In this document: one piece after another, positions 42,947 to 50,684 of the stretch
Layout: the number at the start of each line of letters is the position of its first letter
Position numbering within the stretch: the first letter of the stretch is position 1
From: Eledone cirrhosa
Lineage: Eukaryota
Reading direction: 5' to 3'
Length of the DNA stretch: 64,000 nt
Assembly (NCBI GenBank): GCA_964016885.1
Contig: OZ024750.1
Location: forward strand, 6,386,001-6,450,000
Program-made: the position numbers and the translations under genes
The notes under the pieces: generated by a model
What the model was told of the DNA's origin: nothing
Database searches by the model: none
Seen by the model: the letters and a program-made list of their open reading frames with translations, nothing else

Positions 42947-43011
42947 TATTTTATCTGATGAAAGCACACCATAATTTAACTTGGTGTCCTTGAAATATGT
43001 ATAATGAAATA
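42947..43011 (+). ncRNA. Type I hammerhead ribozyme motif with intact core
   Basis: uauuuuau-CUGAUGA-AAGcACACCA..UGGUGUcCUU-GAAA-UauguA-UA-augaaaua; 8-bp stem I, 9-bp stem II, AUA site. Confidence 0.8.
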
Positions 43012-49387: not shown

Positions 49388-49622
49388 GTAATACTAAAAA
49401 TTGTGAAGACTAAAATCCGAAGAGGGCTCGATAAGGATTATATATATATAAACCGTAGAGTAAATATTTCTTAAAATAACAGATTAAAGTTTAAGCAAAG
49501 AATCTCTGCTTTCACCCATAACGGGATCTTCTGAAACTAAAAAAAAATTTGTTTAGTTTCAGAAGATCTCGTTATGGGTGAAAGCAGAGATTCTCTGCTT
49601 AAACTTTAATCTGTTGATTTAA
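49388..49622. mobile_element. Family F fold-back element in (TA)n
   Basis: 71-bp arms 49471-49541 and 49552-49622 (67/71), tail 49388-49470. Confidence 0.85.
49555..49605 (+). ncRNA. Variant type I hammerhead motif (CAGAAGA core)
   Basis: aguuu-CAGAAGA-uCUCguuauGGGu-GAAA-GCAGAGauuCUCUGC-UU-aaacu; mirror copy on the minus strand at about 49488-49538. Confidence 0.6.
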
Positions 49623-49817
49623 TATATATATATATATATATAAATACAATATCGGAGAAAGCTTTTTAGCGATACTCCGGCCAAATTCCAACTCACTCAA
49701 CAAACATTAGGAAATAAGTGATTATATTCCCAATTATGTGTTCGGGGTGCTAACTAAAAGTATTGCGTGGAAAATTGGCTGTATTATTTCAAATGAGACA
49801 TATCTAATATATCTCTT

Positions 49818-49944
49818 CCCAGACGGACGTCTCGTTTCATTATAGAATTCCTACAATTTGGGTGAAATTATATCAATTTATGTAGGAGCTTGTATACCAT
49901 CAATAGATATATATTCAAGTGGGCTCCTATAATTCATCAGTGGG
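49818..49944 (-). ncRNA. Type I hammerhead ribozyme motif, canonical core, ~95-nt stem II domain (family H)
   Basis: ccca-CUGAUGA-AUUAUAGGA...UUCUAUAAU-GAAA-CGagacgucCG-UC-uggg; GUC site. Confidence 0.75.
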
Positions 49945-50198
49945 TGCCCCAATAATACTAATATTGATAATCTAACCAATATCAGCATTTAGCGATAATC
50001 ACTTTTTGTGCCTGAGGTATCTGTCAGGTTGCCAGTCCAGCAGTTCTAAAGAAGTGCTCGAACTGATTCAAAAAATGAGGAAGTGAATTACCGCCAAAAA
50101 AAAAAACAATACATGCGCGTGACAATGAACTCTGAAAGGAATTCAGGCCAAGTGCTAAGAACTCAATTGGAAATTGAAAAAATATCTGTGTGTACAAC

Positions 50199-50273
<75 letters not shown>

Positions 50274-50684
50274 AGAATTGAAATATGTTTCTGGTATTTC
50301 GGTGTGGAATATGTAAATAGAAGTGAAATATGAAGCTATTGTATTAATTGTAACTAAAGTCATTAAACGATAAGAGCTGATCTTTCCATCATGTTTGTTC
50401 AGAGGTGGATTACAGATGTGTGGATCAAATACTGAAGTGAGAGGATTTCACTTCACTGTATTACTCTGCTTCATATCACTATATTATGCCTATTATAGAG
50501 ATGATTAGGATGATAACCTACACTGTATCGCCCTCTATCGTCTTTAATGTTTCCCTTATGTGAACCCTGTGTGGCTAATAAAGAAATCATTATTATGATT
50601 TGAAAATCAGCATCAGATCTCATATTTTTGGCGCAAAAATAATTAAACGGTTAGATAATTTAAAATAATTATTTATACATTAGT

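Follow-up and report, generated by a model that had tools for sequence, protein, structure and literature searches.

The role of hammerhead ribozymes in Penelope-type elements has been called unclear (PMC8557442). A short palindromic stem III is the pattern of hammerheads that cut as dimers (PMC4209133, PMC7229834, PMC6765202), and a circle model has been put forward for the elements that carry them (PMC4209133, PMC7229834). In a study on Xenopus retrozymes, eight of nine dimers did not cleave (10.64898/2026.07.22.740005). Internal initiation has been described for a Penelope reverse transcriptase (RT), and according to the same report hammerhead cleavage was not needed for insertion of an Anolis Penelope element in vitro (PMC11167929). 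Helix II of published type I hammerheads comprises 4-5 bp, 6-8 bp being called long (PMC4209133, PMC13725137), and variants with additional helices have been reported (PMC4209133 / PMC13725137).

Here we describe a hammerhead with a far larger stem II in the window, i.e., the whole 64,000-nt stretch of Eledone cirrhosa DNA that was analysed (contig OZ024750.1, positions 6,386,001 to 6,450,000). The ribozyme belongs to a protein-free repeat that inserts into (TA)n, a Penelope-type non-LTR retrozyme. The element class is already known, and the forked-arm hammerhead is a variant within it. The hammerhead of this 707-nt element likely cuts multi-unit transcripts in vivo, probably in a dimeric form, and would thereby supply unit-length RNA to a Penelope-type RT.

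The hammerhead and its forked stem II

On the minus strand of the window, positions 49944-49818 hold a type I hammerhead with three helices, of which helix I is open (Table 1). Its core is complete (CUGANGA, GAAA and an NUH triplet), as is characteristic of the type I class at the level of sequence. The first-pass annotation had reported a complete canonical GUC core, a basal stem II of 9 bp, a stem I of only 4 bp and a near-palindromic stem III, and all of these were recovered: CUGAUGA, GAAA and GUC are present on the minus strand, the basal helix (49933-49925 with 49847-49839) includes one G-U, CCCA pairs with UGGG, and stem III of the window copy reads ACG[A]GACGUC CGU. A comparably stringent motif occurred in none of 200 dinucleotide shuffles of the window. 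Rfam returned no hammerhead match, neither for the whole window at the gathering score nor for 49400-50300 at E<=10. The miss is presumably due to the 95-nt stem II, a limit of the library and not a structural requirement, and it bears out the earlier expectation that motif searches which limit stem II to a short length would overlook this ribozyme.

Table 1 Positions of the repeat copy, its target junctions and the parts of its hammerhead
Feature	Position in window	Strand	Remark
5'-truncated repeat copy, unit 143-707	49637..50201	-	97-98% identical to other copies; 3' end fixed at 49637
(TA)n run, 5' junction (target microsatellite)	50202..50271	.	
(TA)n run, 3' junction	49622..49641	.	
3' domain, most conserved part among subfamilies	49637..49790	-	
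Predicted hairpin directly 3' of stem I	49795..49815	-	second subfamily: arms kept, loop altered
Stem I 3' strand UGGG	49818..49821	-	first bases of 3' cleavage product; 15/384 genomic copies begin here
GAAA (49838-49835), palindromic stem III, GUC triplet	49822..49838	-	predicted cut 49822/49821
Stem II basal helix, 3' strand	49839..49847	-	U at 49846 private to window copy
Hairpin IIb UCCUACA...UGUAGGA	49849..49887	-	double change in 1/7 pairs
Hairpin IIa CUUG...CAAG	49889..49919	-	double changes in 3/8 pairs
Unpaired GCCCA in three-way junction	49920..49924	-	3' strand of candidate pseudoknot
Stem II basal helix, 5' strand	49925..49933	-	pairs with 49847-49839; 9 bp, one G-U
Catalytic core CUGAUGA	49934..49940	-	N7 = U or A across subfamilies
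Stem I 5' strand CCCA	49941..49944	-	pairs with UGGG 49821-49818, 4 bp
GGGC, pseudoknot 5' strand or alternative pairing with GCCC 49924-49921	49946..49949	-	unpaired in constrained fold

Unconstrained folding of the window copy does not yield the hammerhead (z -1.05). When stems I-III are enforced, the 9-bp base of stem II opens into a three-way junction formed by GCCCA and the hairpins IIa and IIb, and RNAalifold returns the same junction. The collected loci contain 155 distinct intact motifs, which fall into 12 clusters at 92% identity, seven of them with at least two members; the window copy was aligned with ten cluster representatives, two singletons with internal duplications being excluded. 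Pairing is kept in 97.1% of 378 cells, as compared with 35-49% in slid controls, two rows of the alignment being misaligned at the 3' end. None of 500 shuffles reached the observed share of paired cells, a result that overstates significance, since the window sequence supplied the structure and the rows are relatives of one another. Compensatory double changes affect eight of 35 pairs and are spread over stems I, II, IIa, IIb and III, including two pairs of the basal stem II and a change from C-G to U-A in stem I (5/11 rows). The first pair of stem II is nonstandard in six of the 11 rows, mostly U-U, a mismatch reported as tolerated at 10.1-11.1 in hammerheads (PMC3088659). The alignment argues that stem II of the subfamilies is a conserved three-way junction under structural selection and not merely a tolerated insertion.

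The branching proposed in the first-pass annotation is thus real as far as the helices cuug/caag and ccuaca/uguagg are concerned, which are present and covarying. The third helix proposed there, ggag/cucc, had to be rejected: its strands run into both the basal stem and helix IIb, pairing is seen in no more than 68% of its cells among the 11 representatives, and its first pair is broken in nine of them.

The tetranucleotide GGGC sits one base upstream of stem I and can pair with GCCC of the junction in all 44 cells of the 11 rows, with three G-U changes and zero double changes, while the flanking bases vary. By a simple motif match, both elements are intact in 117 of the 155 distinct copies. 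We consider GGGC/GCCC a candidate pseudoknot. Note that, in the minimum-energy fold of the window copy, this helix competes with the hammerhead. Two further complementary segments of the minus strand are kept in the two main families, CCCAA (49862-49858), which lies in the loop of hairpin IIb, and UUGGG of the 3' domain (approximately 49733-49729); they could form a long-range contact, with which other pairings compete.

Long arms were also seen in hammerheads unrelated to this one, namely at L044:340-480 (+), with a stem II of 103 nt and a palindromic stem III, and in L008 and L090, with a stem II of 52-53 nt. Several families of the genome therefore possess them.

The 707-nt repeat, its arrays and the search for a partner

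The assembly from which the window derives comprises 3.0 Gb and is rich in (TA)n. A repeat search with the region gave 1,941 candidates, the best 40 scored matches being 98-100% identical. The repeat unit is 707 nt long, has a GC content of 35% (under 50%) and is non-coding; an RT plus GIY-YIG open reading frame (ORF) is absent from the unit, and the longest ATG ORF in a dimer of it encodes 44 aa. A 27-mer located immediately past the cut occurs 384 times. The word "solo" in the first-pass annotation accordingly holds for the locus 49818-49944 alone and fails for the family, since there are at least 384 near-identical copies, many of them in tandem. The core is conserved in the copies of the family, a point on which that annotation had made its proposal depend. 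A second family has a unit of 738 nt that is 64% identical over the entire unit, and further subfamilies have units of approximately 990-1,030 nt; in L257, a unit of about 990 nt arose by internal duplication of the 5' part of a 738-nt type unit. A 20-mer of the 3' domain common to the subfamilies occurs 6,937 times.

Copies end at unit positions 704-707, where TA or a further unit follows, and their 5' ends vary. They have no terminal repeat structure, and head-to-tail arrays contain up to four units, the 5'-most of which is truncated. In the L112 array, four intact hammerhead motifs are present at unit spacing; the window copy is a monomer. The family thus combines partial tandems, 5' truncation, a fixed 3' end and microsatellite targets, which together characterise non-autonomous Penelope derivatives. 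By its sequence the repeat qualifies as a metazoan non-LTR retrozyme and appears to work alike. Copying probably starts inside the RNA, as reported for a Penelope RT (PMC11167929), because the 3' end of the insertion falls within sequence that continues into the next unit, and we infer that the 3' domain at 49637-49790 serves for RT docking and contains the internal start site. Near the other end of the unit, a hairpin of about 24 bp occupies positions 118-170 in L015, and the window copy is truncated inside it (overlap at 50201-50175).

About 96% of the copies that cover the cut pass through it intact, so that an uncut multimer or a re-ligated circle would be the main template. Within arrays, diagnostic sites were discordant in 13 of 340 comparisons as opposed to 38% between loci, and private variants are common to the units of an array, e.g., one base change in all site-covering units of L136, L157 and L111. 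Divergence amounts to 3.0% within arrays (38 pairs) and to 3.2% between loci. Since the two values are nearly equal, arrays seem to have formed near the time of insertion from one type of template, and later local duplication is an unlikely source. In sequence terms the arrays agree with the circle model, in which one unit is copied again and again upon insertion; template jumping, or source arrays that were themselves homogeneous, might also have produced them.

The search for an autonomous partner gave negative results throughout. Of the 6,937 sites that match the 3' motif, 89 loci were sampled, and no ORF joined to the element was found in them; nor did the loci collected contain an autonomous element with a pLTR homologous to the repeat. 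ORF scans of the loci, as well as a two-family profile run over 220 loci and the window, likewise yielded no autonomous partner. Penelope-like ORFs beside copies in L017, L046, L329, L335 and L339 proved to have been inserted separately, at the TA runs that these copies also occupy. The only hit of a degenerate motif designed for distant relatives of this architecture, L340, was rejected as it possesses no downstream core.

Two inverted pairs of hammerhead-like motifs lie elsewhere in the window. The pair at 49461-49632 consists of two mutually inverted copies of the 3' end of a different element; this end reads like a hammerhead in which CUGANGA is changed to CAGAAGA (U4 to A), with a 5-bp stem I and a short stem II. 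This element end is preceded by a GIY-YIG-like ORF in L329 and adjoins copies of the 707-nt family in L021, L025, L027, L048 and L049. The motif paired at 42955 (+) and 42714 (-) resembles another hammerhead of type I; its stem II measures 30 nt and its stem I 8 bp, the triplet is AUA, and a relative occurs in L184.

Probable cleavage of family transcripts and competing readings

In 16 of the 384 copies, the upstream part of the hammerhead is missing exactly up to the cut. Fifteen of these are 5' truncations and one, L076, is an internal deletion that spans unit positions 391-522 and removes the whole hammerhead; it was excluded from the count, TGGG microhomology explaining its junction. As a background, 5' ends were mapped for the first 100 listed copies. 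Such ends prefer TA-like positions, and positions with the same 1-nt TA microhomology gave 21 ends per 9,460 copy-positions at risk. Compared with the 0.85 starts expected at this rate, the 15 of 384 copies that start at the cut represent a 17.6-fold excess (P 2e-14), and the excess is 11-fold against the closest class of positions (T followed by G/C). Genome-wide, 19 loci have a TA run no more than 10 nt upstream of the post-cut sequence, and of these 16 start at the cut and three within the preceding ten positions. A downstream-anchored sample, collected with two queries starting at about unit 543 and unit 578, comprised 54 distinct copies; 13 of them start at unit 523-532 and one at 533-577, and the stretch 452-522 contains no start. 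Across the subfamilies, 16 of 91 elements start 0-14 nt past their own cut, one of these being an artefact (the end of L335 at +9, caused by alignment of the TA run), compared with 16 starts over the 133 nt before the cut and 11 over +15 to +94.

Some of these ends need to be read with care. Many at +7 to +14 lie on a TA-like stretch that attracts junctions regardless, and in the second subfamily only one of 30 copies begins exactly at the cut while four begin at +11 to +13. In four of the 100 copies sampled, the end lies 1-7 nt upstream of the cut, a position that run-off by itself would not produce. The peak itself lies at the cut or one base past it, because the junction T may derive from the TA target. 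In L069 and L289, which begin at the cut, a short duplicate of the post-cut bases precedes within the TA run, as if the RT had reached the end of the RNA, slipped and re-primed. Taken on the genomic copies, the excess of 5' ends at the cut suggests that RNA of the family is cut in vivo and then reverse-transcribed.

The following course of events is envisaged. Tandem loci would be transcribed into multi-unit RNA, in which two hammerheads would pair their palindromic stems III and then cut, GGGC upstream of stem I pairing with GCCC of the junction in place of the usual loop-loop contact. The unit-length RNA released would be ligated into circles. A Penelope-type RT/endonuclease would nick (TA)n and mobilise the element, with reverse transcription starting internally at about unit position 703. 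On linear cut RNA the RT would run off after about 185 nt and leave copies that begin at the cut, while on a re-ligated circle or an uncut multimer it would pass the site and go round, resulting in longer copies and arrays. In the case of the window copy, the RT would have passed the cut site and stopped at unit position 143. A further reading is put forward more tentatively, at somewhat less than an even chance: the hammerhead would have a new natural architecture, in which a four-base pseudoknot from the flank of stem I docks into the conserved junction 9 bp out on stem II and makes cleavage depend on dimer formation. The copies would then record run-off at the cut as well as rolling passage through the re-ligated site, and would show directly that hammerheads of the Penelope type act on the transposition template in vivo.

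Dimeric Penelope hammerheads were reportedly the subject of a study by Lunse et al. in 2016. In the present family, stem III is self-complementary in all six sequences folded although the sequences of the subfamilies differ. Taken alone, it forms a monomer hairpin in none of them, and self-dimers were calculated at -6.4 to -14.7 kcal/mol; four of the six contain an 8-nt perfect palindrome of which only 2 bp can form in a single molecule. According to these calculations, the palindromic stem III favours cutting as a dimer. It is improbable, by comparison, that the monomer cuts efficiently, the pseudoknot and the forked stem II bracing the core and offsetting the weak stem III, such that single transcribed copies would be active. 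This possibility draws on the complete core of the window subfamily, on its stem III, the longest among those folded (3 bp plus a 7-nt loop, or 4 bp with a bulge), and on the acceleration of cleavage by pseudoknots in other hammerheads (PMC3088659). Against it stands the palindrome, which persists despite sequence change.

The window copy itself was called the best candidate for an active, unsequestered ribozyme in the first-pass annotation, and this assessment is not supported. As a monomer, its stem III does not fold stably (0 kcal/mol), and its self-dimer was calculated at -14.7 kcal/mol. Adopting the hammerhead fold costs 4.3 kcal/mol for the isolated motif and 9.4-10.1 kcal/mol in its own context, values that the program, which cannot score the pseudoknot, may overstate. 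The copy is furthermore missing unit positions 1-142 and carries a private C-to-U change at 49846, where the family has C (one of 33 copies), which gives rise to a G-U in stem II; basal stem II has a probability of 0.05, as opposed to 0.74 in another unit with the family's G-C. On account of the fold cost and the low probability of its basal stem II, the window copy is not the best candidate for activity on its own, and the folding results make it likely that, alone, it is a weak or silent cutter. In the model, activity is a property of the tandem transcripts of the family and not of the solo window copy.

The GGGC/GCCC pairing could conversely act as an off-switch that competes with stems I and II, leaves monomers and circles uncut and permits firing only in a dimeric or protein-remodelled state. 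That the minimum-energy fold of the window copy contains this pairing instead of the hammerhead would fit, as would the large share of copies that run through the cut and a report of a Penelope element with a protein-assisted hammerhead (PMC11167929). However, GGGC and GCCC are both free when stems I-III are enforced, which means that their pairing is compatible with the active fold, and stem II forms readily in the unit with the family's G-C pair. We regard an off-switch as quite unlikely. It is very improbable indeed that the ribozyme lacks activity or relevance in vivo, with the ends piling up where the RT stalls at a stable fold and the arm serving RT binding or RNA stability: the ends do form a shoulder on both sides of the cut, and another Penelope element could do without cleavage in vitro (PMC11167929), but the peak falls on the single predicted phosphodiester (16/19 loci) after the whole 3' strand of the weak 4-bp stem I has been copied, the stronger stem II helices show no peak (0/100 ends at unit 431-499), and subfamilies with an overall identity of 64% have all retained the core and an NUH triplet (GUC or GUU).

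Comparison with described elements

Metazoan non-LTR retrozymes (PMC7229834; 10.64898/2026.07.22.740005) resemble the window family in many respects. As here, they are described as non-coding tandem units of low GC content with one type I hammerhead each, which occur as monomers, dimers and multimers, lack LTRs and coexist with Penelope-like elements. A circle intermediate has been proposed for them and is likewise proposed for the window family. Differences concern the size of the unit, which amounts to 707 to about 1,030 nt here and mostly to 150-450 nt in the described retrozymes (vertebrate range 51-972), and stem II, which is a 95-nt forked arm here and a 4-bp hairpin there. Targeting of (TA)n with a fixed 3' end sets the family apart from non-LTR retrozymes as described in these sources.

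Known type I hammerheads with a 6-8-bp helix II and an associated RT/GIY-YIG ORF share with the present one a short helix I (4-5 bp), a base of helix II that exceeds the usual length, a small palindromic helix III for which dimeric cleavage is expected, and elements with partial tandems and 5' truncation. Their helix II ends in a simple loop, whereas here 9 bp lead into a three-way junction; their G10.1-C11.1 is A-U or U-U here, and no RT/GIY-YIG ORF is attached. In pseudoknotted hammerheads (Perreault et al. 2011, PMC3088659), at least four Watson-Crick pairs between the regions of stems I and II replace the loop-loop contacts, to which GGGC/GCCC is a candidate equivalent. Unlike in the hammerheads described there, GGGC would pair in stem II with a strand of the junction, located 9 bp from the core within a multibranch arm.

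In the literature covered, we found no account of such a forked, possibly pseudoknotted stem II, although supplementary alignments could hold variants with a long stem II, and no account of genomic 5' ends piling up at the cut of a Penelope-type hammerhead. Because of its forked stem II, a large set of ribozymes escapes Rfam and any descriptor search that allows only a short stem II, and the numbers of ribozymes counted in such genomes are therefore too low. That a branched stem II of 95 nt is tolerated in nature is also of interest for the design of aptazymes. A single-base peak of 5' ends at the predicted cut offers a cheap and general test for cleavage in vivo in young repeat families that carry hammerheads.

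Poseidon PAc of Anolis (PMC11167929) resembles the window family in that the RT starts inside the RNA, targets are AT-rich and a hammerhead is contained in the repeat. PAc is autonomous, whereas no joined ORF was found for the window family in the 89 sampled loci. For PAc, RNA-seq gave no reads that end at the hammerhead cut; in the window family, it is the genomic copies that begin there.
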